A stretch of DNA of 64,000 bases from a virus, in the IMG/VR virus record IMGVR_UViG_3300035670_000083, positions 1 to 64,000 of that record; one strand, written 5' to 3'. The notes under the pieces were generated by a model, which was given only the letters and a program-made list of their open reading frames with translations, did not search any database and had not been told where the DNA came from. Positions 2-58,150 of the stretch are shown piece by piece. How positions within the stretch are numbered: the first letter of the stretch is position 1; each line of letters opens with the position of its first letter. The translations under genes and the position numbers were made by a program.

Positions 2-988
2 GATAAAAAAGTTGGTGATGAATGGCAACCAGTTGATGTATCTACTTCTGATTTTGCAGAAGTTAGAAATGATAAAGAGAATTATCGTTTAAGAAATAAT
101 AATCCAAGTGAATCTTTTTCTGAGTTCCGTGATGAGGGTCCAAGGGGTGGAGATGCTTTTCTTTTAGATACTAAAAAGGCATTATCACAAAATCAAATTG
201 GTCCTTCTTGGGATGCTTTTATTGAGTGTTTAAGAGAAGGTTCTTTATTTGCTATAATAACAGCAAGAGGACACGAACCCGAAACAATAAGAAAATCTGT
301 CGAGTATATAATAGATAATGTTTTATCTGAAGAAGATAGGTTTTTATTATACTCAAATTGTTTGAAACATGCTTATATTTTTGCACACGAAGAAGAATTT
401 GATAGAATACCTAAAGGAACTTTAACACAAACTCCACTTATTAAAACTTATTTGGATGAATGTTCTTATTATGGTGTTTCTTCAAATTCATTTGCAAGTG
501 AGTTTGGAGGTGGTAGTGCTTCTAATCCAGAGAAAGCAAAGGAATTGGCTCTTCAAAAATTTATAGACAAGTGTAATCAATTGGGTAAAAAAGTTGGTGC
601 TAAATCGGTTTCAATTGGTTTTTCTGATGATGATCCTAAGAATGTCGAGCATGTTAGAACATATTTCAAGGAAAGATCGGCTTTAGAAAATGAATTAATG
701 CCACATGATGTTAAGTTCAATTTATACAAAACCACGGATAGAAAATTAAAAGGTGGTGAAAGAACTAAATTTCATCCGGTAGAAGAAGCAGCAGATTCAT
801 CGATTGCTCCTGGAATGCAAACTTCAGTTATGGCATTTTCACAATTCAATAACATGAAAGATAGAATGTTTACTGATCCTAATGAGTATGATAAATCAAT
901 GGAATTAGGAACAAAACAATTGGCTAAGATGTCAAAGGAAAATACTAAATCTATTTCAAATAGAAGAAAAAAAAAGATTAAGAAATGA
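2..988 (+). CDS. HAD-like hydrolase-fold protein, 5'-truncated by the window edge
   Basis: Frame of ORF 362..988 is open back to position 2 (DKKVGDEWQPVDV...IITARGHEPE...FSDDD); TARG and DDD resemble HAD motifs II and IV. Confidence 0.5.
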   Translation, partial: DKKVGDEWQPVDVSTSDFAEVRNDKENYRLRNNNPSESFSEFRDEGPRGGDAFLLDTKKALSQNQIGPSWDAFIECLREGSLFAIITARGHEPETIRKSVEYIIDNVLSEEDRFLLYSNCLKHAYIFAHEEEFDRIPKGTLTQTPLIKTYLDECSYYGVSSNSFASEFGGGSASNPEKAKELALQKFIDKCNQLGKKVGAKSVSIGFSDDDPKNVEHVRTYFKERSALENELMPHDVKFNLYKTTDRKLKGGERTKFHPVEEAADSSIAPGMQTSVMAFSQFNNMKDRMFTDPNEYDKSMELGTKQLAKMSKENTKSISNRRKKKIKK

Positions 989-1641
989 AACACTTAAAAA
1001 GATTTGAAAATATGGAATCCAGAGATTCAATGTGTGATTATTTAAGCAAAAAATGTGGTTATGATATGACTGAATTAGAATCAATGTCAGACTCGGAATT
1101 GAAAGTTTGTTATGATAAAGAATGTGGAATGAATGAAAAAAAGAAAGAAAAATGGATTCAAGACGCAATAAAAAGTCCAGGTTCTTTAAGAAAGGAATTA
1201 AAGAAAAAAGAAGGTGAAAAAATCACTAAAGCTGAAATCAATCAAGAGTTGAATAAATTGAAAAAGAAAGACAAAGATCCAGATAAAAAAGGCGTTCAAG
1301 GTCTATCAAAGAGTGATTTAAAAAGATTCAAAAAATTAAATTTGGCTAAAACACTTAAAGGGATGAACGAAGGACATTCAGATACGAACAATTATATGTT
1401 CTTTGCAAATTTAGAGAATATTTGTAAAATGGCTCAAGAGATTTTAGAAATGGATAAAAGTAAAATTGACGAAATGTTAACACAAGGACACGATTGGGCG
1501 ACTGATCATATATCAGCTTCTAAAGAATCAATAGAACACGTTCACGATTGGTTAAATTCATCATCTGAAGATGTAGAATTTCACGAAGGTGATATAGAAA
1601 CAGAAAAAAATATAAAAGGATTCGATAATTTTGAAAATTAA
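985..1641 (+). CDS. Hypothetical protein with MKHLKRFE leader (probable virion protein)
   Basis: 218 aa ORF; N-terminal leader motif shared with many genes in the window. Confidence 0.6.
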   Translation: MKHLKRFENMESRDSMCDYLSKKCGYDMTELESMSDSELKVCYDKECGMNEKKKEKWIQDAIKSPGSLRKELKKKEGEKITKAEINQELNKLKKKDKDPDKKGVQGLSKSDLKRFKKLNLAKTLKGMNEGHSDTNNYMFFANLENICKMAQEILEMDKSKIDEMLTQGHDWATDHISASKESIEHVHDWLNSSSEDVEFHEGDIETEKNIKGFDNFEN

Positions 1642-1673
1642 AAAAAACCCACTCATTTGAGTGGGTTTTTTTT
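1640..1673. terminator. Bidirectional intrinsic terminator
   Basis: A-run-CCCACTCA-ttt-GAGTGGG-T-run between convergent genes. Confidence 0.85.
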
Positions 1674-2694
1674 ATGCAACTTCCATAACTTTTACAGACT
1701 CTACCGTATTAACTAATTTATTAACAATCTGATAAGGATCTGCATTTGAAGCAGGTCTTCTATCTTCTAAATATCCTTTCCAATTGTTTTGAGACATTGA
1801 AATTGGAATTCTGATTGAAGCTCCTCTGTCTGATACACCATATGAGAACATATCAATATGTTGCGTTTCGTGTAATCCAGTTAATCTTTGCTCGTTTGAT
1901 GATCCATATACTGCAATGTGATCCTTATGATTTTTTCTTAAAGTTTCACATATTTCATTGACATAATCTTCACCTCCTTCTTCTCTTAATCTTTTATTAG
2001 AAAAATTAACATGAAGTCCAGATCCATTCCAATCTCCTTTAACAGGCTTTGGATGAAATTCAACTTTGACACCATATTTTTCAGTTATTCTAAAAAGAAG
2101 GTAACGGCTTAACCAAAGATCATCTCCTGCTTGTTTTGTTCCCTTTCCTAAAATCTGATATTCCCATTGTCCTAACATAACTTCTGCATTAATTCCAGTA
2201 ATATTAAGTCCTGATTTTAAACAGATATTAAAATGTTCTTCAACAATATCTCTACCAGCAACATTATCGATTCCAACTGAACAATAATACATTCCTTGTG
2301 GACTTGGATATCCTCTTTCCGGGAATCCTAAAGGTCTTTCATTAAAAGTCAAAGTATATTCTTGTTCAAACCCAAACCAATAATCATCGTTATCTTTAAT
2401 TTGATTCCTTTTATTAGTTAGATGTGGTGTTCCGTCTGGATTTAATACCTCACACATAACTAAATAAGAAGGAATACCACCTTGATTTGTTCTCTCAATA
2501 TCCATAATAATTCTAACAGGATTTAAGATACAATCAGATGATTTTCCTTCTGCTTGTTTAGTTGAAGATCCGTCAAATGACCATTGTGGGCAATCTTCTA
2601 ATCCATTGAAATCATCTGTGATTACTTTTGTTTTGCTTCTTAGGTTAGCTTCTGGTTGGTATCCATCTAACCAAATATATTCGAGTTTTACCAT
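1672..2694 (-). CDS. glnII: Glutamine synthetase type II
   Basis: LEYIWLDG, WSFDGSST, FGFEQEY, NAEVMLGQWEYQ, HPKP..GDWNGSGLHVNFS, RLTGLHET, DRGASIRIP, YLEDRRPASNADPY; 340 aa fits GSII. Confidence 0.93.
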   Translation of the reverse strand: MVKLEYIWLDGYQPEANLRSKTKVITDDFNGLEDCPQWSFDGSSTKQAEGKSSDCILNPVRIIMDIERTNQGGIPSYLVMCEVLNPDGTPHLTNKRNQIKDNDDYWFGFEQEYTLTFNERPLGFPERGYPSPQGMYYCSVGIDNVAGRDIVEEHFNICLKSGLNITGINAEVMLGQWEYQILGKGTKQAGDDLWLSRYLLFRITEKYGVKVEFHPKPVKGDWNGSGLHVNFSNKRLREEGGEDYVNEICETLRKNHKDHIAVYGSSNEQRLTGLHETQHIDMFSYGVSDRGASIRIPISMSQNNWKGYLEDRRPASNADPYQIVNKLVNTVESVKVMEVA

Positions 2695-2737
2695 AAATTT
2701 TTGAGTTTTTTCTTTTTATTTGAAAAAAATCAAAAGT

Positions 2738-3481
2738 TTATATTTGTCTGAAAATATTTATTCCTAAAGCAACAAACTCACATCCTTCGTGATAAAAGTA
2801 ATGATCAGAGTGAAAGTGTCCATTATAAAATCCTTTTATATCATTCGACTTTTTTATCTCTGTATATAATTTAGTCATATTAGCTCTTTCTTCTCTAAGA
2901 TCTTGAAGTAAAGTAGGATCTCCTTGAGCATAAGAATAAACTAATCCATTAAATTTAATTGGTTGACAAAAATCTGGTGAAGTGTGACAAATTACTCTAT
3001 CAATTCCTCTGATATTTTTTGCGAACTCAAAATCAAAGTTTACTATTTCATCTTCCCAATAATATTTTGTAGAGTTTATAAGGTCTCTTTTTTTAGATTG
3101 TTCTCTATCAATAGATACTGCTCCTCCAATGAAAAGTATATTCTCACCATTTATATTTAAAACCGAATAATCTTCTACAAAAAGTATGTTTGTTAATTTA
3201 CTTTTAATTTCTTTGAAGTTCTCATTTTTAAACCAACTTGGATTATCGTGATTTCCTCTTATTACTAAAAGATGTGAATCAAATTCAACTAAACATTGAT
3301 TTAATATTAGTAAGTTCTTTTCATCAGTTTCTATAGAATCATATCCGATTCTAAAGTCTCCAACTTGAATATAACATATTTTATCCATTTGGATTTTAAG
3401 CAAGTGATTTACTATGACACGCCAAGCGCCATGTATATCACCCAAAAGGATTCTCATATTATATTCATTATAAAGTTTCAT
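2738..3481 (-). CDS. Calcineurin-like metallophosphoesterase
   Basis: GDIHG, VGDF, RGNHD, HTSP, GHFH motifs. Confidence 0.85.
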   Translation of the reverse strand: MKLYNEYNMRILLGDIHGAWRVIVNHLLKIQMDKICYIQVGDFRIGYDSIETDEKNLLILNQCLVEFDSHLLVIRGNHDNPSWFKNENFKEIKSKLTNILFVEDYSVLNINGENILFIGGAVSIDREQSKKRDLINSTKYYWEDEIVNFDFEFAKNIRGIDRVICHTSPDFCQPIKFNGLVYSYAQGDPTLLQDLREERANMTKLYTEIKKSNDIKGFYNGHFHSDHYFYHEGCEFVALGINIFRQI

Positions 3482-3486
3482 AACTA

Positions 3487-3494
3487 CAAATATA
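3487..3494 (-). promoter_or_regulatory. Bacteroidota-type -7 promoter element (TATATTTG)
   Basis: Matches TAnnTTTG immediately upstream of the phosphoesterase gene. Confidence 0.55.
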
Positions 3495-3533
3495 CAGAAA
3501 AGTTTGATAAGTTTAAAATTTTATATATAGATT

Positions 3534-5357
3534 ATGTTATCTTATTTAGAATTTTTAATAGAGAATAAATTAACTTTAAGTTTGTATTTTTCTACTGAAC
3601 TAAAGAAATTACTTAACAATATTAGTAAATCAAGTCAACCTGGTTATGAAATTGCTAAGTATCTTTTAAGTTGCCATAATCTTCCTAATAAGAGGTATGA
3701 AATGACATTTGTTGATATAACAGATAAAAATGATAAGATTAGTTTTTTACAGGTAAATAGAGCAAAAAGATTTTTTGATGAAAATGGTGATAAAAAGAAG
3801 ATTGATGATTGGGCTTTTGATCAATGGTATAATAAAACTTTAAATATGCCTGGTAAAGTTTGGAAAGAACAAAGATCTGAGATTGGAATAGGTAAATTCA
3901 CCAATAAGATATATCAGAATGATAAGAAGTCGATAACTTCAAAGGAATTAGAGAATTTTGTTAACCTTTATAAATCATTTTATGATTTGGAAAATAAATC
4001 TTTATCTAGATTTGAAGTTGTTTCAGGAGAAGATATAAAAAAATGGTATCTGAATGAGAATTACGCTGAACAAAAAGGTCAATTAGGTTCTTCTTGTATG
4101 AGACATAAATCATGTCAAAATTATTTTGGAATTTATACTCAGAATCCAGAAGTTGTTTCTTTAGTAATTCTTAAAAGTCCTGAAGATGATACTAAAATAG
4201 TTGGAAGAGCTTTACTTTGGAAAAGTGTTAAAGGAAATAAAATTATGGATAGAGTGTATTTCATAAATGACTCAGATAAAATACTTTTTGAAAAATTTGC
4301 TGAAAAAAATGGTTGGATATCAAAAGAAGATATGACTTGGGAAGAACTTGAAAAAAATCAAATACAATTGAAAAAATGGAAATTTGATTACTATCCTTAT
4401 TTAGATACATTTTGTTTTTTAAATAAAAGTACTGGTTTATTATCTACTGATGAAGACCTTTGGCCTGGGCAAGGATATATTAGACTACAATCTACTGGAG
4501 GTTATTTTGACGATGATGATGTGGTATGGGATGATTACAATGAGGAATATATTCCAAGAGAAGATGCTGCTTATTGTCAAAGAAGTGGTGAGTGGGTAAA
4601 CTCAGAGAATGCTATTTGGTTAGAGTATAGAGACGAATATGCTCACCCTGGTCGTGATGAAACTTGTTACTCTAAATATGACGACTCTAATTATTACCTT
4701 GATGATTGTATTTTTTCAGAAATTTTGAATGATTATTTTTTAAGTGACGATGTTATTGAGATAGTTATTGATAAGCATGCCTATAATGATTATGTTCATG
4801 TTGATTTAAAGAATTCTTTAGTAGATATAGAAATTGGTGGTACAACCTATAAAACTCTTGATTTATTAACTATGATAAACCCTATTACCGGAGTTAGAGG
4901 ATTCAAGGAAAATGTGATAAAAGAGATTAAGAATGATTATGAGATTGTAAGTGATGATGAATTGAATAATTACATAAGAAATTTAGATATTGATTTAAAT
5001 TTAAATGATTTGAATATTATATCTAATTATATTGATGATTACCATATAATAAATCAATTTAAATCAGATAAAAATGAATTTGTAAATATAATTAAACTTC
5101 TATTGATAACTTCACCAAAAAAGGGAGAGAGAAGTATGGATAATATTAATAGAAATGCACAAAAAGATGAAATATATTCCAAACTTAAAGAAGACACGAA
5201 AAGGAGAATTAAATCATATTTCTCGAGCTTTTCTTTGAACTATCTCAAATTGTCAGAATCACTTTTAATTAAGATTTTGAAAGATCCGCAGATGCTTGTG
5301 TCTTACATTACAAAAAAGAAATTGACATATTCTGATTTGAGAAAATTGGTTATTTAA
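3534..5357 (+). CDS. Conserved phage hypothetical protein with MLSYLEFLIE leader
   Basis: 607 aa; SSCMR, GRALLW, MDRVY, YPYLDT blocks; acidic aromatic C-terminal repeats. Confidence 0.6.
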   Translation: MLSYLEFLIENKLTLSLYFSTELKKLLNNISKSSQPGYEIAKYLLSCHNLPNKRYEMTFVDITDKNDKISFLQVNRAKRFFDENGDKKKIDDWAFDQWYNKTLNMPGKVWKEQRSEIGIGKFTNKIYQNDKKSITSKELENFVNLYKSFYDLENKSLSRFEVVSGEDIKKWYLNENYAEQKGQLGSSCMRHKSCQNYFGIYTQNPEVVSLVILKSPEDDTKIVGRALLWKSVKGNKIMDRVYFINDSDKILFEKFAEKNGWISKEDMTWEELEKNQIQLKKWKFDYYPYLDTFCFLNKSTGLLSTDEDLWPGQGYIRLQSTGGYFDDDDVVWDDYNEEYIPREDAAYCQRSGEWVNSENAIWLEYRDEYAHPGRDETCYSKYDDSNYYLDDCIFSEILNDYFLSDDVIEIVIDKHAYNDYVHVDLKNSLVDIEIGGTTYKTLDLLTMINPITGVRGFKENVIKEIKNDYEIVSDDELNNYIRNLDIDLNLNDLNIISNYIDDYHIINQFKSDKNEFVNIIKLLLITSPKKGERSMDNINRNAQKDEIYSKLKEDTKRRIKSYFSSFSLNYLKLSESLLIKILKDPQMLVSYITKKKLTYSDLRKLVI

Positions 5358-38327: not shown

Positions 38328-38975
38328 TTAAAGTGGAAGTTCTTCTTCTCCTTCTTCACCTTCTGTTTCTTCTCCTTCTATTTCCTCGAATTCTCCTTGT
38401 CCCTGAGCTTGTCCTTGCATCTGAGTTTGTCCCTGAGCTTGTCCTTGCATCTGAGCTTGTCCCTGAGCTTGTCCTTGCATCTGAGCTTGTCCCTGAGCTT
38501 GTCCTTGTCCTTGAGCTTGTCCTTGCATCTGAGATTGTCCTTGCATCTGAGTTTGTCCTTGAGATTGTCCTTGCATTTGAGGTTCTTCTTGCATCTGTCC
38601 CTGTCCTTGCATTTGACCTTGTGGTTGTGCTTCCACTTGAATCTGTGCTTGTTGACCTTGAGGTTGAGTCTGTACTTCTCCTTGTCCTTGTGCATCACCA
38701 GTTAAAGCTCCTGCTGGAATTTGATCAACATTTAAGAAGTTCTGTGTTATATATTTTACAACTTCTTCAGCTATATCAACATCACCAAAGAATTGTCTTA
38801 GGTTTTTACCAGTGTTGTCTTTCACTTTCTTAACATAAGCGTTAATCATTGATTGTGGTATGTCAATCATTGTTCTCACCTTATAGATGTCGTTAACTTG
38901 TAGAACAGATTCTTTAATGATCTCTTCTTTTCTTTTTTTGGTTTGATAGTTTCCAAATTTTCTAATATGTTTCAT
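38328..38975 (-). CDS. Protein with MKHIRKF leader and Gln/Gly-rich repeat tail
   Basis: QGQAQMQGQAQ repeats; acidic end. Confidence 0.7.
   Translation of the reverse strand: MKHIRKFGNYQTKKRKEEIIKESVLQVNDIYKVRTMIDIPQSMINAYVKKVKDNTGKNLRQFFGDVDIAEEVVKYITQNFLNVDQIPAGALTGDAQGQGEVQTQPQGQQAQIQVEAQPQGQMQGQGQMQEEPQMQGQSQGQTQMQGQSQMQGQAQGQGQAQGQAQMQGQAQGQAQMQGQAQGQTQMQGQAQGQGEFEEIEGEETEGEEGEEELPL
38395..38580. repeat. Coding tandem repeat (QGQAQMQGQA, about 30 bp unit)
   Basis: CCCTGAGCTTGTCCTTGCATCTGAGCTTGT and variants in tandem. Confidence 0.85.
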
Positions 38976-40648: not shown

Positions 40649-40930
40649 ATGAGTACAATAACAGAAAAAAAATCAAAATCAAAAGTAGATGAAATACTTT
40701 CAAAGCCATTTAAGTTGATTCTTCACAACGATGATTATAATTCCTTCGAATGGGTAATAACTTGTTTGATTAAAGTTTGTGGACATGATCATCAACAAGC
40801 TGAGCAGTGTGCTCATATAGTTCATTTTAACGGTGAATGTGATGTTAAAAGAGGTGATTATGAGAAACTATCTGTGATGAAGGAGAAATTACAGAATGCT
40901 GGTTTGTCAGTTACTATAGAATCAAATTAG
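40649..40930 (+). CDS. clpS: ATP-dependent Clp protease adaptor ClpS
   Basis: LILHNDDYNSFEWVITCL..VCGH...QAEQCAHIVHFNG...VK.G. Confidence 0.9.
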   Translation: MSTITEKKSKSKVDEILSKPFKLILHNDDYNSFEWVITCLIKVCGHDHQQAEQCAHIVHFNGECDVKRGDYEKLSVMKEKLQNAGLSVTIESN

Positions 40931-42975: not shown

Positions 42976-43218
42976 ATGAAAAAATGTAAATGTATTAAAG
43001 AATCTTCTTGGTTTTTAATTGATGATTCCTTCGATAAGAATTCTAAATTAAATGGTGGTGGATTTTCTTTTCAAGTAGGTAGTGAATATGATTATTTTGA
43101 AGAAGATACACCATTTGGAAATGGTATGTCGGTTATCCATCCTAAACATGGGAAAGAAAATCCTACTGGTTTTGATGAAAGAAGATTCTACGAACACTTT
43201 GAAATAATAAACTCATAA
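42976..43218 (+). CDS. Cassette gene, hypothetical 80 aa
   Basis: Single ORF between S3 and S4. Confidence 0.7.
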   Translation: MKKCKCIKESSWFLIDDSFDKNSKLNGGGFSFQVGSEYDYFEEDTPFGNGMSVIHPKHGKENPTGFDERRFYEHFEIINS

Positions 43219-43236
43219 AATTTTTGATATTGAACC

Positions 43237-43379
43237 TAACGATACTCAGATATATTTAGGTTTTCTTTTTAATGTAGTGTGAGATTTGAAACACTACCTG
43301 TCAATATACCAACAAACTCTATTAGAAGCACTTACCTTCAATTAACCACCGAATCTCACATTACATATACACCTTGTTA
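43237..43379. repeat. Site S4: chimeric attC-like site
   Basis: Left 37 nt identical to S6 left arm; remainder is a different hairpin (GTAGTGTGAGATT...AATCTCACATTAC) ending ACATATACACCTTGTTA like S8. Confidence 0.8.
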
Positions 43380-43488
43380 TGTGTAGGTGTGATTATTTAC
43401 CACCAAACTCTATTCGGAGAACTGAAAGAAAATTTTAGAAAAAAGAAGGGAGGGAAATTTAATTCAGAATATTTTATATATATCATCT

Positions 43489-44304
43489 ATGATACTCAAA
43501 TTTAATCAGTTTATAACTGAAAGACTTTCCTATTCTGAAGATGTTGAGATGATCTCAAAGATTATAATTGAATACTTATATGGTAAAGAAAACTGGGAAT
43601 CAGAAGAAGTGATAAAAATAGATAATTCGGTTATAAATGAAGTAAGAATACAATTCATAGATAATTTAAGTAAGTTAGGAAAAAAATCATCATTTAATCC
43701 AAATAAATCAGATTATAATAATCGTATGATATTTTTAGAATTTGATCCAGATGAAATCACCGAAGGATTGTTAAATCATGAAGTATTTCATGGGTGGGAA
43801 TGGATTCGAAATGAAGGAAAACATTTAACTAATTCTTTTCAATTCGCAATTATTCAATTAAATAATTACTTTGAAGAAGATGAAAACATATCTGAAATTA
43901 TTCAACTATTTTATTTAATGTCAGATGCTGAAATTAGATCTCATTTAAATAGTGATATATTTGAATTTAAAAGATGGAAAGAGGATAAAAATACCACTTC
44001 GATGGAAGAAATAGATTTATTAATAGAGGAAACAGATACATTTCAAAATTATCAATTTGTGAAAAAATTTAATCTAAACGAATATTTAAATAAATTGAGT
44101 ACTGAGAAATTAGATGAATTTATATCAGCAGTTGAACAAATGAAGTATATGAAAGATGGTGAAGAGTCTGAAATTATGGTGAAGAGATTTTCTGATTTAG
44201 AGAGAAGTAAATTTATACAAAAGTTAAATATTATACACAAACAACAAAGTGAAAAAATTACTAAATATTTAGGAAAATTAATATTATATTTCAGAAACTC
44301 TTAA
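43489..44304 (+). CDS. Cassette gene, putative zinc metallopeptidase with MILKFNQFITE leader
   Basis: LNHEVFHG (HExxH) plus downstream DAEIRSH glutamate. Confidence 0.6.
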   Translation: MILKFNQFITERLSYSEDVEMISKIIIEYLYGKENWESEEVIKIDNSVINEVRIQFIDNLSKLGKKSSFNPNKSDYNNRMIFLEFDPDEITEGLLNHEVFHGWEWIRNEGKHLTNSFQFAIIQLNNYFEEDENISEIIQLFYLMSDAEIRSHLNSDIFEFKRWKEDKNTTSMEEIDLLIEETDTFQNYQFVKKFNLNEYLNKLSTEKLDEFISAVEQMKYMKDGEESEIMVKRFSDLERSKFIQKLNIIHKQQSEKITKYLGKLILYFRNS

Positions 44305-44345
44305 ATTTTTTTTAGAAAAAATTTATTTGATACATTTTTAATTAC

Positions 44346-44353
44346 TATATTTG
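44346..44353 (+). promoter_or_regulatory. Bacteroidota-type -7 promoter element
   Basis: TATATTTG 20 nt upstream of ATG 44373; TTTG at 44326-44329. Confidence 0.6.
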
Positions 44354-44372
44354 CGTATATAATAAAAATAAA

Positions 44373-44626
44373 ATGGAAAATCTCAAACAAGAAAATAACT
44401 ACGAAAAATTTGTTATCAGACAGAAGGTGGTTGGGTATTAAAAGAAGGCGTGGCTAAAAAGGAAGAGATAAGTTTTTTTGTTGTTAGTCCTGATGGTAAA
44501 GAACTTACTTGTTTAGATGGTTCAAATATATTCTCTTCTGTTGATAAATCTGATTTGTTAGAATCGTTTAATATGAGGTTTAAAACAAACTGTGTTAGTG
44601 TAGAAAGACCAAATGTTTTTGAATAA
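44373..44626 (+). pseudogene. Frameshifted cassette gene (about 84 aa if repaired)
   Basis: MENLKQENNYEKFVI then one base missing near 44418, then TEGGWVLKEGVAKKEEISFFVVSPDG...RPNVFE*. Confidence 0.6.
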
Positions 44627-44652
44627 GAAAATAATTGAAAAATAATTCAATA

Positions 44653-44732
44653 TAACGGTTGCAAATATGAGAAGTAAATTTTTTCCATAAAAAAATAGAA
44701 AAATCAAAATTTATTTCTTATATTTGTTGTTA
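44653..44732. repeat. Site S5: attC-like hairpin
   Basis: TAAC-GGTTG-21 bp stem with two G:T pairs-TT-GTTA. Confidence 0.88.
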
Positions 44733-44758
44733 TATTTAGTAAAAATTAATTTATACAT

Positions 44759-44938
44759 ATGAAATACGAAGCACTTAAAAAAGAATATTATGCAGTTTAT
44801 GAAAAAGAACCAAGACACCAGAATGAAAAGAATGGTGTGATACTTGCACCATATAACACGAAAGAAGAAGCTGAACAAGCGAGAATTAAATATGGTTATA
44901 GTGATGATAACTACTATGTTGATAAACTCATAAATTAA
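44759..44938 (+). CDS. Cassette gene, hypothetical 59 aa, absent from the ORF track
   Basis: MKYEALKKEYYAVYEKEPRHQNEKNGVILAPYNTKEEAEQARIKYGYSDDNYYVDKLIN fills the S5-S6 interval. Confidence 0.7.
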   Translation: MKYEALKKEYYAVYEKEPRHQNEKNGVILAPYNTKEEAEQARIKYGYSDDNYYVDKLIN

Positions 44939-44951
44939 TTTTTATTGAATA

Positions 44952-45073
44952 TAACGATACTCAGATATATTTAGGTTTTCTTTTTAATATATACTAAAAA
45001 CAATTTATGAAAGATAATAAACACATAAAAAGTTTCAACGATCATCAAGAAAACTTGAATATATCTGATGTTA
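44952..45073. repeat. Site S6: attC-like hairpin with promoter and gene start in the loop
   Basis: TAAC-GATAC-TCAGATATATTTAGGTTTTCTT...AAGAAAACTTGAATATATCTGA-T-GTTA; 22 bp stem, two G:T; TAATATATA at 44985-44993, ATG at 45007. Confidence 0.9.
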
Positions 45074-45288
45074 GTGGTAGTGAAATATTAAAATATCTTG
45101 ATGATAAATATCATGTAAAAGATAATCTAATGATTGTTGGTAGATTTGATAAGAACAAAAAATATAATTATATTCAATTGTCTAATGAAATATCAAAGGT
45201 ATTTGGTTTGTCAACACAACAATCATTAGATTTAGTAGAAAAGTGGAAAGATATTAGATTTGAGAAAATTATGAAAAATAGATTTTAA
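45007..45288 (+). CDS. Cassette gene beginning inside site S6
   Basis: MKDNKHIKSFNDHQENLNISDV-SGS...; the Val codon is the GTT core. Confidence 0.75.
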   Translation: MKDNKHIKSFNDHQENLNISDVSGSEILKYLDDKYHVKDNLMIVGRFDKNKKYNYIQLSNEISKVFGLSTQQSLDLVEKWKDIRFEKIMKNRF

Positions 45289-45302
45289 TATTTAATTATC
45301 AC

Positions 45303-45350
45303 TAACGTCCGATGATAAACAATCGTTTTAATGTTGTTTATCATTTGTTA
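45303..45350. repeat. Site S7: attC-like hairpin
   Basis: Identical to S2 except one loop base. Confidence 0.9.
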
Positions 45351-45461
45351 TGTGTAGGTGTGGATTATTTACTACTAAACTTCAATCGGAGAACTGAACA
45401 AAAATTTTAAAACAAAAAGAAGGGTGGGTTTTTTAATCTTACTATTTATATATAAAAGAAA

Positions 45462-45890
45462 ATGATGAAAGATTTGAGACAGTTTATTAAAACAACCATA
45501 CGTGAGTTTTTGAATGAAGCATACATTGATGAGGATGGTAATTTAAAAGACTTTAATGATAAAATATTCTATGATTTTGATAAAATTAAAAAGTTTGTAG
45601 ATTGGTTTCAAAGTGAATATAGTGATTATACTCATAAACAGGGTTGGTCTATATTCGATTCTGATACAGAAGCACCTAATGAAAAATATCATAGTGAAAG
45701 AACTTTTAATGGTAAAAAATTGAATGGATATTATTGGCAAGTTCAAAGATTAGATTCACCAAGTGATGACGAAGCATTATTTGGGAAATTACCAAATGAT
45801 TATAAGGCTGATGATTTAGCAAGAAAGTTAGGTTTAATGGTTGATGAATACGGTGTGGTTTATGGTTGGGATGGACAATCTTTTTTATAG
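45462..45890 (+). CDS. Cassette gene, hypothetical, MKDLRQFIKTTIREFLNE leader
   Basis: Single ORF between S7 and S8 with TTATATATA upstream. Confidence 0.75.
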   Translation: MMKDLRQFIKTTIREFLNEAYIDEDGNLKDFNDKIFYDFDKIKKFVDWFQSEYSDYTHKQGWSIFDSDTEAPNEKYHSERTFNGKKLNGYYWQVQRLDSPSDDEALFGKLPNDYKADDLARKLGLMVDEYGVVYGWDGQSFL

Positions 45891-45960
45891 TGTGTGGGAT
45901 TTTTCTTTTAAAATTTTCAACCGAAATATTGATTAGAACGATGAATGGAACACTTACACA

Positions 45961-46050
45961 TAACGGATGGGTGTATATGTAGGTTTTTTAACTTTAAAAT
46001 TTAATATATACTTATGAACTGAATAAAAAACTTACATATACACCTTGTTA
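45961..46050. repeat. Site S8: attC-like hairpin with TAATATATA in the loop
   Basis: TAAC-GGATG-GGTGTATATGTAGGTTTTTTA...TAAAAAACTTACATATACACC-TT-GTTA; 21 bp stem, one G:T. Confidence 0.9.
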
Positions 46051-46081
46051 TGTGTTAGTAAAAAATAAAAGGAAAAAGAAT

Positions 46082-46387
46082 ATGAAAAGATTAAAATACA
46101 TTAAAAGATTCAATGAATCAAATGAAATGGATATTGAAATTGAATTAATTGGTCCTGATATAGATGATATTTTAGATGCAATTAACTTCATAAACAATAA
46201 CTATGATGTGAGTGTAAATCCAACAGATTTTCAAGAAGGTTCTGATATGCCTTATGCTCATAAAAGAAATCAAAATTATTCAATTTTTGTTAAGTTAAAT
46301 CCTAGTGGTGATGAAAAAAGTCATATCAGATTTATTAATGATTTGTTGGATGAAAACGGATTCTCTTGTAGGTTGTATATGATTTAA
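46082..46387 (+). CDS. Cassette gene, hypothetical, MKRLKYIKRFNES leader
   Basis: ATG at 46082 preferred over the GTG at 46052. Confidence 0.75.
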   Translation: MKRLKYIKRFNESNEMDIEIELIGPDIDDILDAINFINNNYDVSVNPTDFQEGSDMPYAHKRNQNYSIFVKLNPSGDEKSHIRFINDLLDENGFSCRLYMI

Positions 46388-46414
46388 TGATATTATTTAT
46401 TTTCTTATTACACA

Positions 46415-46544
46415 TAACGATACTCAGATATATTTAGGTTTTCATTTTTAATATATAAACAAAAATAATTTAACAACATGAAAAGTTCAAATAATGTAAA
46501 AAGTTTCAAAGAGTTCAATGAAAACTTGAATATATCTGATGTTA
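46415..46544. repeat. Site S9: attC-like hairpin with promoter and gene start in the loop
   Basis: Same family as S6 with compensatory change (TTTTCATT/AATGAAAA versus TTTTCTT/AAGAAAA); TAATATATA at 46449-46457, ATG at 46478. Confidence 0.9.
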
Positions 46545-46708
46545 GTGATAGTTTTTTGTCACCCGAAGAATTTTTAATTGATTGGGAAGGTAAAGATGAT
46601 TCAACACACCCCAATCAAGATATTAGAGACGAATGGACTAAAAGAATTAATCAATTAAAAATTTATTCAAAAATGGTTCTTGATAACACTTTAAAAAATT
46701 ATCACTAA
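46478..46708 (+). CDS. Integrase-proximal cassette gene beginning inside site S9
   Basis: MKSSNNVKSFKEFNENLNISDV-SDS...; its stop TAA is part of the terminal TAAC core. Confidence 0.75.
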   Translation: MKSSNNVKSFKEFNENLNISDVSDSFLSPEEFLIDWEGKDDSTHPNQDIRDEWTKRINQLKIYSKMVLDNTLKNYH

Positions 46709-46745
46709 CTATATTATATATGTAATGACCTATAAATAATTGATT
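46706..46745. other. Site S10: candidate attI-like primary integration site
   Basis: Last TAAC core, followed by T rather than G and by no hairpin; 36 nt before the integrase ATG. Confidence 0.6.
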
Positions 46746-47549
46746 ATGAATGAAAAGGGTAAGTCAACTTTAAAGATTTGTGAACAAAAACTTAATTATC
46801 TAAATTATTCTAAAAGAACGATTGATAATTATTTATCACATATTAATAGATTTTTAAAATCACAAAATAAATCATGTTTGCATTTATCATCTAATGATTT
46901 TCAGTCATATTTAGATAATTACAAATTTACTTCTATATCGCAACAAAACCAAGTTATTAATTCTATTCGATTTCTTTATAAAGAAGTTCTCGGTAAAAAG
47001 TATGATAAAGTCTCTTTCAAAAGACCTAAATCTGAAAAGAAACTTCCACAGGTTATAGATGGTGATTATATAAAATCACAATTATCTAAAATTGATAATC
47101 TTAAACATAAGGCAATCCTCACACTAACATACTCGGTTGGATTAAGGGTTTCTGAAATAACCAATCTTAAAATTGAAGACATTGATTCAAAAAGAATGAT
47201 CATTCATATAAAAAATGCAAAAGGAAAGAAAGATAGGATTGTTCCACTTTCTGAAAATGTTTTAAATTTGCTTAGATATTATTGGAAACAATATAAACCA
47301 AAAGAATACCTTTTCAATGGATTATCCGGTAGATATTCAATTCAATCCTGTCAGAAAATATACAAAAAATATATTGATGAAAAATCATCATTTCATACAT
47401 TAAGACATTCTTCATTTACTAATTTACTTGAGTCAGGAACAGATTTGCGGATAATACAGAAAATAGCAGGTCATTCAAGCTCAAAAACAACCGAAATATA
47501 TACTCACGTTTCAAATCAAATTTTAAGGAAAGTTAAATTACCCATCTAA
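46746..47549 (+). CDS. Tyrosine recombinase, integron-integrase-like but without the IntI insertion
   Basis: SAM-like N-domain (YSKRTIDNY, SISQQNQVINSIRFLYKEVL), KKLPQVI, catalytic GLRVSE, AKGKKDR, HTLRHS, AGHSS, TEIYTH all intact. Confidence 0.92.
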   Translation: MNEKGKSTLKICEQKLNYLNYSKRTIDNYLSHINRFLKSQNKSCLHLSSNDFQSYLDNYKFTSISQQNQVINSIRFLYKEVLGKKYDKVSFKRPKSEKKLPQVIDGDYIKSQLSKIDNLKHKAILTLTYSVGLRVSEITNLKIEDIDSKRMIIHIKNAKGKKDRIVPLSENVLNLLRYYWKQYKPKEYLFNGLSGRYSIQSCQKIYKKYIDEKSSFHTLRHSSFTNLLESGTDLRIIQKIAGHSSSKTTEIYTHVSNQILRKVKLPI

Positions 47550-49748
47550 TCCCCAAGATTTTCTAGCTTCTACCATCCTTCTATTATAAGAGATTTTATT
47601 TCTTCTTATATCCAGTAATTGTTTATAATCAACTCCTTCTTCATATGATATTTTATTTAAAATATCATCAACTTTATTTCTTATCTGTATATCTTCTAAA
47701 TTATCAAAATAATCATCTACCATCCCTCTGAAATCATTCTTACCAAAAATAGATGTTAGGTTAACCAAAGTCATAACCGTATCATCATTTTTATTACCAT
47801 CAGCTTTATAAGTAATATTTCCAGTTCTTGTTGTATGTTTTATAAATGTTGTCATTTCATCTATATTTTCGTTATTATAAATAATAATTGATCTATCTTG
47901 CATTTTTTCTTGGTAATCTTTCACCATTAGGTTTTTATTCTCACCAACTTTTAATCCTATTTTTTCATCTAACGCATCTACTCTGTGTTTAAATCTAAAG
48001 AATATAGATGATCCATAGTTGTTATTTCCTTCAAATACATTCGGTAAGTGAGCAAGTAACTCATATCCGTATGTATTGACTTCTAATACAGCTTTTAAAT
48101 TATCTGTATCAAAATGATCAAAAGCTAAAACATAAAGTAATTCTGATAATTCATTGACGGATATAAGATTGCTTCTATACATTCCTATTTGTTCAAGTTG
48201 AATAAAGTCAAGTATGTTTCTATAATTCTTATTTTGTCTTTCTATTAGATCTATCGGCTTTGATTTTAATTTGAAAATATTTATCACCGTATAGTCCTGT
48301 CCTAATCCTTCAGATACATCTATACTTAATAGTATCCGATAATTTTTTCTTATTTGTGGATTATAAATTTCTTTATTCGGATGCCATTTTAGATCTTTGT
48401 AAGAGAATTTAAGTTTTTCTTCTATTTCAGGAATTTCCTGCCATTCAAATAATGTTTTTCTATCAGTTAATTCTTTTATTAATCCATCATCTAATAATGA
48501 TCTAGATGAGTTAATAAACTTCAAGTCAAATTCTTGGTTAAAAGCTTCTTCACCACCAATATCTTTGATTGTTTGTTTTTTCCAAGTTGTTATTTCAGCA
48601 ATTTCTGGTAATTTAATATCATTTATTGTTTCTTTAATGATATCTTCTTCCTGACAATCATCAGAATTAAAAACATGAACAACCCACTTATTTAACTCGT
48701 CATCAAATCTCAGCTCTGATTTATTTTTTGGAAAAGATTCTTTAATCCTACTTAAAACATCTTCTGGTTTGACATTGTAGTGATCTAATTTCTTTTGATT
48801 CAATCTTATGTATGTCACGAATCTTTTCGGAACTTGCCACCAATAAACTCTTTTTGCCACATAAGATGATTTTTCGCCTTCAGGCTTTTCAGCTTCTATT
48901 AAAAGTTTGTGAAATAAATTAAATCCGTTTGGAGTAGAGGTTATTATAATTTTAGAATTATCGATGTTGGCAATAGTAGGAAACACCGATTTGTAGAATT
49001 TATCTGCAATATTATCTGGTAGATAAGCAAACTCATCTAAATATAAAAAGTCAGCAGATTGACCGATAGAAGCGGTTTTTGTTGTTGCAAATCCTTTTAT
49101 ACGACTTTTATTTTCAAATGACATGAATTTCTCATTCCACTTTTTAATACCTTGTTGTAAGAAAAATGGAAGTCTTTGGTATATTTCTTTCATTTTATCA
49201 AGGATCTCAGTTGCTGTATCCAACTTATTTGCTGTTACAAGAACGTTTTTGTTATTATTAAAAAGAACAAAATGTAATATGGTTATTGCTGATGTGATAG
49301 TATTATGTGATAAAATACCATTTGTATAATATCTATGATTTGGATGATCAATAGATAAATCAAACATAGATAGTTTATGATTTGTTTTTTCTATCATTTT
49401 AACTTTTGATATTCCTTGATCAGTTTGTATGTAATCGCCTATTTTTAAATCTTTTATGTATATTTGATTAAAGTCCACATCAAATAAAATGTGATTATCA
49501 GCACCGTTAAGAAATAGTCCATTTTCTAGTTTTAAATTATATTCACTATAAGGTTGTGTTATATGTATTTGCGGAGCTATTTCATAACCAGTGTCTGTTT
49601 TCACTGATAAGTTGCAACTTATTGTATTCAATATCTTTTTGGATATATCATGTTCATTCAAATCTAAATTTCTGTATTCGAAAACTTCTATATACTCAAT
49701 TAATTTTTTTATTAAATATATTATGATAAGAGTAAAAAATCTAAACAT
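47538..49748 (-). CDS. terL: Terminase large subunit, C-terminal part preceded by C-intein
   Basis: Intein blocks then SHN|TITSA; LYLDEFA (Walker B), IITSTPNG, SIDVSEGLGQDY, NDDTVM. Confidence 0.9.
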   Translation of the reverse strand: MFRFFTLIIIYLIKKLIEYIEVFEYRNLDLNEHDISKKILNTISCNLSVKTDTGYEIAPQIHITQPYSEYNLKLENGLFLNGADNHILFDVDFNQIYIKDLKIGDYIQTDQGISKVKMIEKTNHKLSMFDLSIDHPNHRYYTNGILSHNTITSAITILHFVLFNNNKNVLVTANKLDTATEILDKMKEIYQRLPFFLQQGIKKWNEKFMSFENKSRIKGFATTKTASIGQSADFLYLDEFAYLPDNIADKFYKSVFPTIANIDNSKIIITSTPNGFNLFHKLLIEAEKPEGEKSSYVAKRVYWWQVPKRFVTYIRLNQKKLDHYNVKPEDVLSRIKESFPKNKSELRFDDELNKWVVHVFNSDDCQEEDIIKETINDIKLPEIAEITTWKKQTIKDIGGEEAFNQEFDLKFINSSRSLLDDGLIKELTDRKTLFEWQEIPEIEEKLKFSYKDLKWHPNKEIYNPQIRKNYRILLSIDVSEGLGQDYTVINIFKLKSKPIDLIERQNKNYRNILDFIQLEQIGMYRSNLISVNELSELLYVLAFDHFDTDNLKAVLEVNTYGYELLAHLPNVFEGNNNYGSSIFFRFKHRVDALDEKIGLKVGENKNLMVKDYQEKMQDRSIIIYNNENIDEMTTFIKHTTRTGNITYKADGNKNDDTVMTLVNLTSIFGKNDFRGMVDDYFDNLEDIQIRNKVDDILNKISYEEGVDYKQLLDIRRNKISYNRRMVEARKSWGLDG
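49302..49748 (-). mobile_element. Split intein, C-terminal fragment
   Basis: Block B-like ADNH, IKDLKIGD, block F MFDLSI...YYTNGI, block G SHN followed by Thr. Confidence 0.88.
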
Positions 49749-56752: not shown

Positions 56753-58150
56753 ATGTCTGATATTAAAAAAATAAATGAATTTTTCAGCAAAAACTACGAA
56801 TTTGATAAGAGAGCTAAAGAAGTTTTTCAGAAATTGATAAAATCTATAGATTCTTTAGATGTTATTAAATATGGTGATCATAAAAGAGAAGTTTCTGTGA
56901 ATGGTTCTAATCCTAAATCAAAATCTGATCCAACTCCTAAGCCAAATCCTGATCCCGAACCAAATCCATTACCTGTATCTCCAAAGCCATTGCCACCTGG
57001 ACCTGTGACTCCAAAGCCATTGCCACCTGGACCTGTACCTCCAAAGCCATTGCCACCTGGACCTGTACCTCCAAAGCCATTGCCACCTGGACCTGTACCT
57101 CCAAAGCCATTGCCACCTGGACCTGTGCCTCCAAAGCCTTCACCATTTGAAGAGATAAAGAATTTCAATAGAAATGGGCAAATAGCTTATGTTCTATCAA
57201 AATTTGGTGATGATTGGGATATAACTAAATATACAAAAAAGAAAATTCCACCTCGTGGTAAGTTCAGTGATAATTATATTAAGAAAATAATTTCTGATAA
57301 AGAAACTAGTAAAGATTTAAGAGATTTATTGAAAATCATTTTATATTTTAGAAAAAGTGATTCTAAACAAGATAGATTTTTGAGATTCATTGAAAGTCAA
57401 TTTGAAGGAATCGAATTCGGAAAAAGAGTTAAGGCAATATCAACAAGACCTGCAGTTGATACTGCAGCACCTATAGGTGATAGTTTTAAATATAATGAAT
57501 ATGAACTTTTAAATGAAAATAATAAAGAGACGTTTAATAAATTTTTAGAAAATCATCCAATAAGTGAAAAGATTTTAAATAAAAACAAAATCTTAATTTT
57601 AGGACTTATTTCATCTATGTATAGATCAAAGAAAAATCCTAACTATTCTATAGAAATAAAAGGTTTGGATAAAGAAAGTCTTGATAAGGTTGAGCGTTTT
57701 GCTTTTTCTGATTTAAGTCGTAAAAATTATATCTTTCTTGATGAATCTAAAGTATTCAAATTCTCACAATTTAACGAAAAAATAGATAGTAAATTTAGAG
57801 ATAGGGTAGGGACTAAAAAAACAAAAATAGTAAATACCACAAAAAAGGTAATAGATAGCACTATTAAAGATAATGAAACTCAAGTAGTTGTTCATAAAAA
57901 CAAAGGTGGTGGAAGAGATTGGAGATTATTCAATGGATCAAGTGATAATTATGTTCTGGTAATAAATGGTGAGCACATGATTGACGGTGAAGGTAATCCG
58001 AAAGTAAATCCTAAAATAACTAAGGTTTTCTGGGAATTTTTAGATTCTTTAAAAGATATTCAATACTCTTATAAAAAGAAAAACTTGAGTGATAAAGAGT
58101 ATAAGGATAAACTAAATCAATTGAAAACCTCATTCCAGAACAAAATTTAG
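56753..58150 (+). CDS. Putative virion protein with proline-rich tandem repeat
   Basis: PKPLPPGPVP x5; MSDIKKINEF leader. Confidence 0.6.
   Translation: MSDIKKINEFFSKNYEFDKRAKEVFQKLIKSIDSLDVIKYGDHKREVSVNGSNPKSKSDPTPKPNPDPEPNPLPVSPKPLPPGPVTPKPLPPGPVPPKPLPPGPVPPKPLPPGPVPPKPLPPGPVPPKPSPFEEIKNFNRNGQIAYVLSKFGDDWDITKYTKKKIPPRGKFSDNYIKKIISDKETSKDLRDLLKIILYFRKSDSKQDRFLRFIESQFEGIEFGKRVKAISTRPAVDTAAPIGDSFKYNEYELLNENNKETFNKFLENHPISEKILNKNKILILGLISSMYRSKKNPNYSIEIKGLDKESLDKVERFAFSDLSRKNYIFLDESKVFKFSQFNEKIDSKFRDRVGTKKTKIVNTTKKVIDSTIKDNETQVVVHKNKGGGRDWRLFNGSSDNYVLVINGEHMIDGEGNPKVNPKITKVFWEFLDSLKDIQYSYKKKNLSDKEYKDKLNQLKTSFQNKI
56981..57138. repeat. 30 bp coding tandem repeat, five full copies plus a partial
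   Basis: CCAAAGCCATTGCCACCTGGACCTGTACCT. Confidence 0.95.

Follow-up and report, generated by a model that had tools for sequence, protein, structure and literature searches.

AttC-like hairpins containing the starts of small genes in a giant-phage gene array

The DNA stretch analysed here (the window) comprises 64,000 nucleotides (nt) and is the first 64 kb of the 100-kb IMG/VR virus record IMGVR_UViG_3300035670_000083. Two imperfect hairpins of the window, S6 and S9, each hold in their loop the sequence box TAATATATA and the ATG of the downstream gene. The first 22 codons of that gene, here called the head, run through the 3' arm of the hairpin and end in its core GTT; the remainder is called the cargo. 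The same arrangement, small genes starting inside a hairpin site, was found in well over a hundred related phage contigs, and in about a third of all sites the downstream gene starts inside the hairpin. As the record is 100 kb long with a CheckV completeness of only 18%, its source is a giant phage. With a probability of roughly 0.7, S6 and S9 are members of a large family of sites resembling the attC sites of integrons, within an integron-like cassette system of giant phages in which the site acts as a built-in expression adaptor.

Structure and distribution of the sites

The small + strand open reading frames (ORFs) of the row are separated by imperfect hairpins with TAAC at the start and GTTA at the end. 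The elements of S6 and S9, and of two related structures, are the following:

44952-45073, + strand: S6, attC-like hairpin from TAAC (at 44952) to GTTA
44961-44982, + strand: 5' arm of S6, non-coding, 22 nt, 91% complementary to 45047-45068
44985-44993, + strand: box TAATATATA in the S6 loop, 13 nt ahead of the ATG at 45007
45007-45072, + strand: site-encoded head of S6, 22 codons from the loop ATG; codons 15-21 are the 3' arm and codon 22 is GTT (Val)
45047-45068, + strand: 3' arm of S6, read as (Q)ENLNISD; the GTT at 45070-45072 is Val22
45074-45083, + strand: outer stem of the S6 cassette (cargo residues S-G-S-E), pairing at 7/10 positions with 45293-45302, just ahead of the next TAAC
45007-45288, + strand: ORF 45007, 93 amino acids, head and cargo; the cargo recurs elsewhere at about 70% identity
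46415-46544, + strand: S9, second hairpin of the S6 family, TAAC at 46415
46424-46446 and 46517-46539, + strand: arms of S9, 23 nt, 91% complementary
46449-46457, + strand: box TAATATATA in the S9 loop, 20 nt ahead of the ATG at 46478
46478-46543, + strand: site-encoded head of S9, 22 codons ending in GTT (46541-46543, Val22)
46478-46708, + strand: ORF 46478, 76 amino acids, head and cargo; it stops at the TAA within the terminal TAAC
46696-46709, + strand: 3' end of the last cassette, outer stem and TAAC, 9/10 complementary to 46545-46554
45961-46050, + strand: S8, a related hairpin with box TAATATATA at 46002-46010
43237-43260, + strand: third 5' arm of the S6/S9 type, joined to S8-like inner and 3' parts, core GTT at 43376

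The loops of S6 and S9 are 64-70 nt long. Folded as single-stranded DNA, the + strand reached z = -3.2 (S6) and -3.5 (S9), and the - strand folded more weakly (z = -2.4 and -2.0, respectively). The 5' arm has 4-5 unpaired bases and the 3' arm 1-2. BLASTP aligned ORF 45007 with ORF 46478 only over residues 1-25, of which 15 are identical, and no alignment of the remainders was found at E <= 100.

The features that an earlier note on this DNA had described were all recovered: loops with TAATATATA and an ATG, a right arm encoding ENLNISD, a GTT core read as Val, and a common head on two proteins unrelated beyond it, with promoter-like box, start codon and head leading in frame through arm and GTT into the cargo. 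Also its statement that S8 holds the box but gives no fusion proved correct, the loop ATG at 46025 being followed by a stop after two codons; the gene downstream of S8 has its own ATG at 46082. The common VS(G/D)S motif has to be divided. Its Val comes from the hairpin core, but the S-x-S belongs to the outer stem of the cassette, outside the hairpin, and stems from an A-G-T, conserved at +9 to +11 counted from the G, that is present in untranslated hairpins too.

The structure at 43237-43385 is a chimeric hairpin, formed by an S6/S9-type 5' arm, a degenerate box TAATGTA and S8-like inner 5' and 3' arms, and its outer stems no longer pair. After the TAAC ending at 46709 there is no further hairpin, and the array ends there beside the recombinase gene.

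Hairpins defined by TAAC, GTTA and at least 13/14 stem pairs numbered 570 in the window together with 148 loci (numbered with L below), compared with 32 in the reversed-sequence control. Of 501 distinct hairpins, 169 were leader-type, with a loop ATG open through the core, GTT as a codon and at least 25 codons beyond it. In the first set of 311 hairpins, an in-loop ATG open through the core and for at least 25 codons beyond was found in frame 0 in 100 cases, in frame 1 in 29 and in frame 2 in nine. The 19-nt 3' arm is present in at least 80 IMG/VR contigs. An in-frame loop ATG lies 18-123 nt (mostly 42-69) upstream in 72 of its 74 distinct copies, and the ORFs run on into sequence that differs from copy to copy. 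The anatomy of S6 and S9 is thus confirmed and widespread.

Exact matches to the 19-mer were also found in the genome_contigs collection. About eight of these are chance matches in ordinary genes, while the remaining ones lie in metagenome-assembled genomes labelled with unrelated taxa, archaea included; they give no evidence of the host and are most simply read as mis-binned phage contigs. In one lake-water run (X4), the summed contig depth over 43200-47600 of the window was 10-400 times higher at the hairpins than over the ORF bodies (for example 59,678 versus 0-140), and two placements were possible for 257 contigs; in that community the families of hairpins are present in very many copies.

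A second leader-type class is read in phase 1, with the TTA after the G as a codon. It was seen at L017(-) 423, L048(+) 1245, L050(-) 7001 and L015(-) 11700 (0-based core positions on the named strand). Here the hydrophobic core of a signal peptide resembling those of lipoproteins is read from the arm; the cargo then adds a lipobox-like motif, closing with Cys, and acidic residues after it. The products look like phage lipoproteins whose signal peptide would be partly encoded by the site.

That the two ORFs are full-length paralogues, or that translation really begins downstream of the core and leaves the head untranslated, is scarcely credible. The 25 shared residues are the sole point in favour. 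The cargoes, however, cannot be aligned with each other, and each has its own homologues behind other heads, which contradicts full-length paralogy. Beyond the start codon, Met first appears at residue 42 of 93 in ORF 45007 and at 65 of 76 in ORF 46478. In 39/92 leader-type sites, the 20 codons that follow the core include an in-frame Met, with about 37% expected by chance; early Met is therefore not enriched, and the cargo has no start of its own. Among the sites without a leader, 20/25 are followed by an own ATG within 20 codons. Also two head residues encoded by the loop, F10 (TTT 13, TTC 15) and E12 (GAA 16, GAG 15), are kept through synonymous change, which argues against an untranslated head. 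Gene callers of the public databases likewise predict these ORFs from the loop ATG. Both grounds on which the earlier note would have abandoned its reading, paralogy and a downstream start, thus failed to appear.

In these sites, the promoter-like box (here TAATATATA) and the ATG lie in the unpaired loop, the next approximately 14 codons are loop, codons 15-21 the 3' arm and the Val the core GTT, and the following 3-4 codons come from a cassette-borne outer stem that pairs with the cassette's own 3' end. In the mechanism proposed, with the box as the promoter and translation beginning at the loop ATG, the site would serve as an expression adaptor for ORFs lacking promoter or start codon, and the fixed reading phase, with GTT as a codon, would make heads and cargo interchangeable.

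Exchange of heads and cargo, and the cassette edges

Comparisons between loci support the view that heads and cargo are separable modules in nature and that the GTT is a real break point. The head of ORF 45007 is found on at least ten unrelated proteins, and its cargo behind three heads in all, at about 70% identity behind the two others (P0002-P0004). The cargo of ORF 46478 stands behind at least eight different heads at 83-98% identity, with one pair reaching 98% cargo identity; among these heads, P0053 represents a decayed arm and P0062 an unrelated 46-residue N-terminus. Six further cargo families have two heads each. Between sites with unlike arms, DNA identity starts exactly at the GTT: the arms of L033/L117 and L056 differ at 9/18 positions, and those of two paralogous DNA methyltransferase genes in L054 at 13/18. 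These methyltransferases (L054 1026 and 2158; 46% identical, about 245 amino acids) stand behind different leader-type hairpins, and their relatives in L084 and L040 start at their own ATG without a head. Methyltransferases, two of them, are also reported from a cluster of attC sites lacking an integrase (CALIN) in Polaribacter phage P12002L (PMC9892861). In the window, ORF 46082, with its own start, is homologous to an L064 cargo that lies behind an LNISDV head.

The search with the ORF 46478 cargo found nothing in viral_contigs and one locus, L098, in metagenome_contigs. There the cassette ends at the TAAC that matches 46709 and is followed by a different hairpin. At L098 150-200, a deletion has removed the 5' arm, box and ATG and left TAACGG directly joined to the last part of the head, and the upstream ORF has a stop codon in frame; this copy of the cassette is probably dead.

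The first 10 nt behind GTTA and the last 10 nt ahead of the next TAAC are complementary at a mean of 7.1/10 positions, compared with 3.6 for random pairs (all loci). This pairing of unit ends was considered as proof of a crossover at GTT and rejected, as it fits a crossover at TAAC equally well. Blocks at least 93% identical between contigs have 53 distinct break points at TAAC and 10 at GTT. The difference between L021 and L078 is exactly a single unit, a hairpin with its downstream body, between flanks that are 100% identical, and the edges of this unit are TAAC/TAAC. Since TAAC break points dominate and this indel has TAAC on both sides, the hairpin with its head usually travels with the downstream gene. 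Cargo-only blocks from GTT to TAAC with different hairpins on both sides were also found, in L037/L038 (99.4% identity), L108/L114 and L106/L066. From these comparisons TAAC is concluded to be the main edge and GTT a second, rarer one. The claim that DNA joined at the core gains the functions of the site holds in so far as GTT junctions exist, but the edges are mostly TAAC and the head usually moves with its cargo. Read on the - strand, the layout is the classical integron arrangement but with inverted ORFs.

The neighbouring recombinase would, under the mechanism proposed, act on the folded + strand and cut mainly after the TAA of TAAC, in which case the hairpin plus the downstream gene would be the usual mobile unit. 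Joining at GTT would then be a second, rarer exchange, or would occur when a cassette is first made.

Alternatively, hairpin and gene may form one cassette whose sole recombinase edge is TAAC, with heads swapped by homologous recombination or gene conversion through the common arm of 19-35 nt. The predominance of TAAC break points and the clean indel between L021 and L078 would fit this, as would the fact that most head swaps are between sites having the same arm. Compared with the window, the L040 loop is a mosaic between conserved arms, and the shuffling of T4-type promoter and stem-loop elements (PeSLs) offers a precedent (PMC2839356, PMC4122927). Against it are the exact GTT junctions between the arms that differ at 9/18 and 13/18 positions, which have only TGTTA in common, and the cargo-only blocks with different hairpins on both sides. 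Exchange by homology alone is accordingly considered possible but rather unlikely.

A further-reaching interpretation, in which the recombinase joins start-less ORFs to site-encoded N-terminal modules in a fixed phase as a site-specific prokaryotic counterpart of exon shuffling, is regarded as doubtful. If true, phase-0 sites would provide hydrophilic leaders and phase-1 sites lipoprotein signal peptides, and a single recombination would switch on a captured ORF and set the destination of its product (virion, cytoplasm or envelope).

Conservation of the head and the promoter-like box

In the other families of leader-type sites, conservation of the three codons preceding GTT is highest at the third positions (98%, 70% and 98%), one second codon position in the same arm varies freely, and the arm consensus is identical in untranslated sites. 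Third-position conservation and the same consensus in untranslated sites indicate that it is the nucleotides encoding LNISDV that are conserved. Among the other leader-type sites, the arms encode over 40 different hexapeptides, each arm pairing with its own 5' arm, and the head families are mutually unrelated. The inner stems co-vary (GGTTTTC/GAAAAC versus GTTCTGA/TCAGAA). Residue +3 is Ser or Arg, with codons that have AG in common. The head peptide would thus be mostly a by-product of the site, with mild amino-acid-level conservation suggested for the loop-encoded I-x-x-F-x-E. N-termini resembling I-K-x-F-N-E were also found on genes outside hairpins (18926, 46082 and 63238, and in P0053). 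AlphaFold modelled ORF 45007 with low confidence (mean pLDDT 66.6), the head as coil and helices from residue 24 onwards.

The earlier note had taken the head for a capsid-targeting leader and the fusions for a route to new virion proteins. In bacteriophage T4, diverse internal proteins share nothing but a capsid-targeting sequence (CTS) that is conserved (PMC3012670), and if the head were a targeting or packaging leader of this kind, any cassette joined to it would become a virion protein by the same logic. The amino-acid-level conservation of the loop-encoded I-K-x-F-N-E and the occurrence of the motif at N-termini outside hairpins point in this direction. The constant LNISDV is, however, constrained as DNA, other leader-type sites lead to unrelated heads, and the DNA methyltransferase cargo has relatives without any head. 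The lipoprotein-signal-like heads of phase 1 imply a different destination, and the head has no sequence similarity to the T4 CTS. A leader conserved at the peptide level, as in the T4 type, was not found, the constant segment being conserved at third positions and also where it is untranslated. A prohead protease (PF03420) was not found in the 100-kb record, which covers about 18% of the genome, and as the control genomes were silent too, this negative carries no weight. A function as a CTS is very unlikely, and this part of the note finds no support.

Another explanation would see the hairpin as working mainly in RNA, as a terminator, processing site or translational control in read-through transcripts, with its position at a cassette edge secondary. 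Mismatches on the coding strand are G:T, that is G:U in mRNA, and the + strand folds better than the - strand, which would fit such a role. Transcripts from the loop box, on the other hand, would not contain the 5' arm. Indels and replacements of cassettes have their break points at the edges of hairpins, the units carry inverted repeats at their ends, and the arrays are accompanied by a recombinase gene. A primarily RNA-level role is consequently judged highly improbable.

The box TAATATATA occurs in 23 copies in the window where 4.3 are expected, a number that none of 100 shuffles reached. Of the 23 copies, 21 are followed within 60 nt by the start of an ORF of at least 40 codons, compared with 20% at random positions, mostly at a spacing of 20-24 or 4-5 nt. 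Judged by its placement, TAATATATA behaves like a phage promoter. A UvsX-like recombinase gene has a copy 20 nt upstream of it, and no recognised structural gene was found among ten annotated genes preceded by the box; the proposal of specifically late transcription is not supported. In many loci, loops of leader-type sites that lack TAATATATA often hold, 8-25 nt ahead of the ATG, the sequence (A)ACTTAAAT, which may represent a further class of promoter in other lineages of phages; in the window ACTTAAAT is not enriched (7 found, 11.5 expected).

Several observations weigh against an attC-like site family with a built-in expression adaptor. The box is nearly confined to the LNISDV family, being present in 2 of the 51 leader-type sites of other families, and the promoter part would thus be specific to a family or lineage. 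The only RNA contig on the region, 46220-46405 (from one RNA run, searched with three DNA runs), is mute on start sites. The loop codons overall have a ratio of nonsynonymous to synonymous polymorphism (pN/pS) of 0.66, so that selection on the peptide is weak at most. Of 70 heads, about a dozen are without any 5' arm, so a head can persist as an ordinary gene start. To these is added the excess of TAAC over GTT break points, because of which the GTT junction may arise by homologous exchange via the common arm and not by the recombinase.

The recombinase, its array and known systems

The array is bounded by two genes:

40649-40930: ClpS-like gene, bounding the row of small + strand ORFs on one side
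46746-47549, + strand: tyrosine recombinase gene, 267 amino acids, Pfam Phage_integrase 6e-34, adjoining the array

The best NCBIfam match of the recombinase is XerA-like, with 176 bits against a cut-off of 220. Against the integron integrase model TIGR02249 it scored 160 bits (cut-off 265), with the match in two stretches, and against PRK15417 99 bits (435). Its 267 residues compare with 315-337 positions in the IntI models. With the NCBIfam and PRK15417 scores below the cut-offs, the protein was not recovered as an integron-type integrase, nor was the extra segment specific to IntI found in it. Homologues of the recombinase adjoin comparable arrays in L013, L032, L034, L046 and L059. On the minus strand of L082 (core 5225), an LNISDV head and 56 unrelated residues are fused to a recombinase-like segment that has 85% identity with the catalytic domain (C-terminal 163 residues) of the window recombinase, the N-terminal SAM-like domain being replaced.

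Through the recombinase, cultured relatives were found in Polaribacter phages Freya_1-10 and Cellulophaga phage Ingeline (37-40% identical). The giant phages with the site family probably infect Bacteroidota. The strict hairpin criterion gave one site in Freya_10 and none in Ingeline. The otherwise similar phages Freya_1 to Freya_10 (MT732463-MT732472) range in genome length from 43,978 to 48,920 bp, and the related integrase, located by tblastn, has its match starting at positions that shift from 83 to 4180, as if small genes had been gained upstream.

The recombinase gene is followed by the large terminase gene (47538-49748, - strand; 736 amino acids). The T4-type N-terminal domain of the terminase begins only at residue 150, and the first approximately 150 residues, without a Pfam match, end in a motif that recalls an intein C-terminus (H-N and then T). 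Elsewhere in the window, tandem-repeat coding stretches are present at 38331-38690 (12/18-nt units, in ORF 38328-38975 on the - strand) and 56941-57175 (30-nt units, in ORF 56753-58150 on the + strand). The two ORFs encode low-complexity proteins, Gly/Gln-rich and Gly/Pro-rich, respectively.

Integrons and CALINs have been reported in phage genomes, including that of a Polaribacter phage (Qi et al. 2023, PMC9892861). That paper does not mention starts inside attC (no matches for 'start codon'), no paper was found describing genes that start inside recombination hairpins, and a full-text literature search for LNISDV found nothing.

The sites share with integron attC the imperfect hairpin with AAC...GTT cores (570 TAAC...GTTA hairpins versus 32 in the reversed control) and the unpaired bases on one arm. 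Also the row of single-ORF units beside a tyrosine recombinase and the pairing of unit ends across the core (R''/R'; 7.1/10 versus 3.6) are as in integrons, and one site family is common to many unrelated ORFs, as with the VCRs of Vibrio. Unlike in integrons, the phage recombinase is short, Xer-like and below the integron-integrase cut-offs, the gene follows on the 3' side of its site, with its start inside the site, and the sites hold a promoter-like box (S6, S8 and S9), the cassettes thus not being promoterless and expressed from Pc at the platform, as in integrons. Integrons have a single crossover between G and TT of R' and an attC at the 3' end of the ORF, whereas both edges of the phage hairpin appear as natural break points and the hairpin goes mostly with the downstream gene. 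Integron biology assumes a promoterless ORF followed by a site that does not code; here the gene includes the site, and a recombination site doubles as a protein-coding module with a promoter-like box, a start codon and about 22 codons. This bears on the unsolved origin of cassettes, as each new cassette of the family must be joined in frame at the core. As a search rule, an N-terminal L-x-I-x-x-V followed by S/R/I/M-x-S/R would lead to hundreds of unannotated accessory genes of giant phages. The system is also testable, having short hairpins, a small recombinase and related recombinases in cultured Polaribacter and Cellulophaga phages.

In class 1 integrons, ORF-11 and ORF-18 of attI1 offer a partial parallel: a short site ORF over the crossover point helps to express cassettes that lack initiation signals (PMC8876359). 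ORF-11 and the phage sites have in common a short ORF with its own initiation region inside a recombination site. However, ORF-11 sits in attI and not in attC, stops at the stop codon of the cassette core and acts by translational coupling, whereas the phage site ORF runs in frame into the cargo, and such in-frame fusion is the rule for a third of the sites (169/501).

The T4 internal proteins are similar in being many unrelated small proteins of a hypervariable phage locus with only a short N-terminal leader in common. The T4 CTS is nevertheless a peptide signal cleaved by the prohead protease (PMC3012670), while the constant part of the phage heads is conserved as DNA in a recombination hairpin. 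The PeSLs of T4-type phages place a promoter and a stem-loop between small variable ORFs that undergo modular shuffling, with mini-circles (PMC2839356, PMC4122927), and the repeated box plus stem-loop between small variable ORFs is alike in both systems. A PeSL is a promoter and terminator outside the coding sequence and is shuffled by homology with no dedicated recombinase; in the phage sites, by contrast, the loop contains the box, the 3' arm belongs to the coding sequence, a recombinase gene is linked, and GTT junctions occur between unlike arms.

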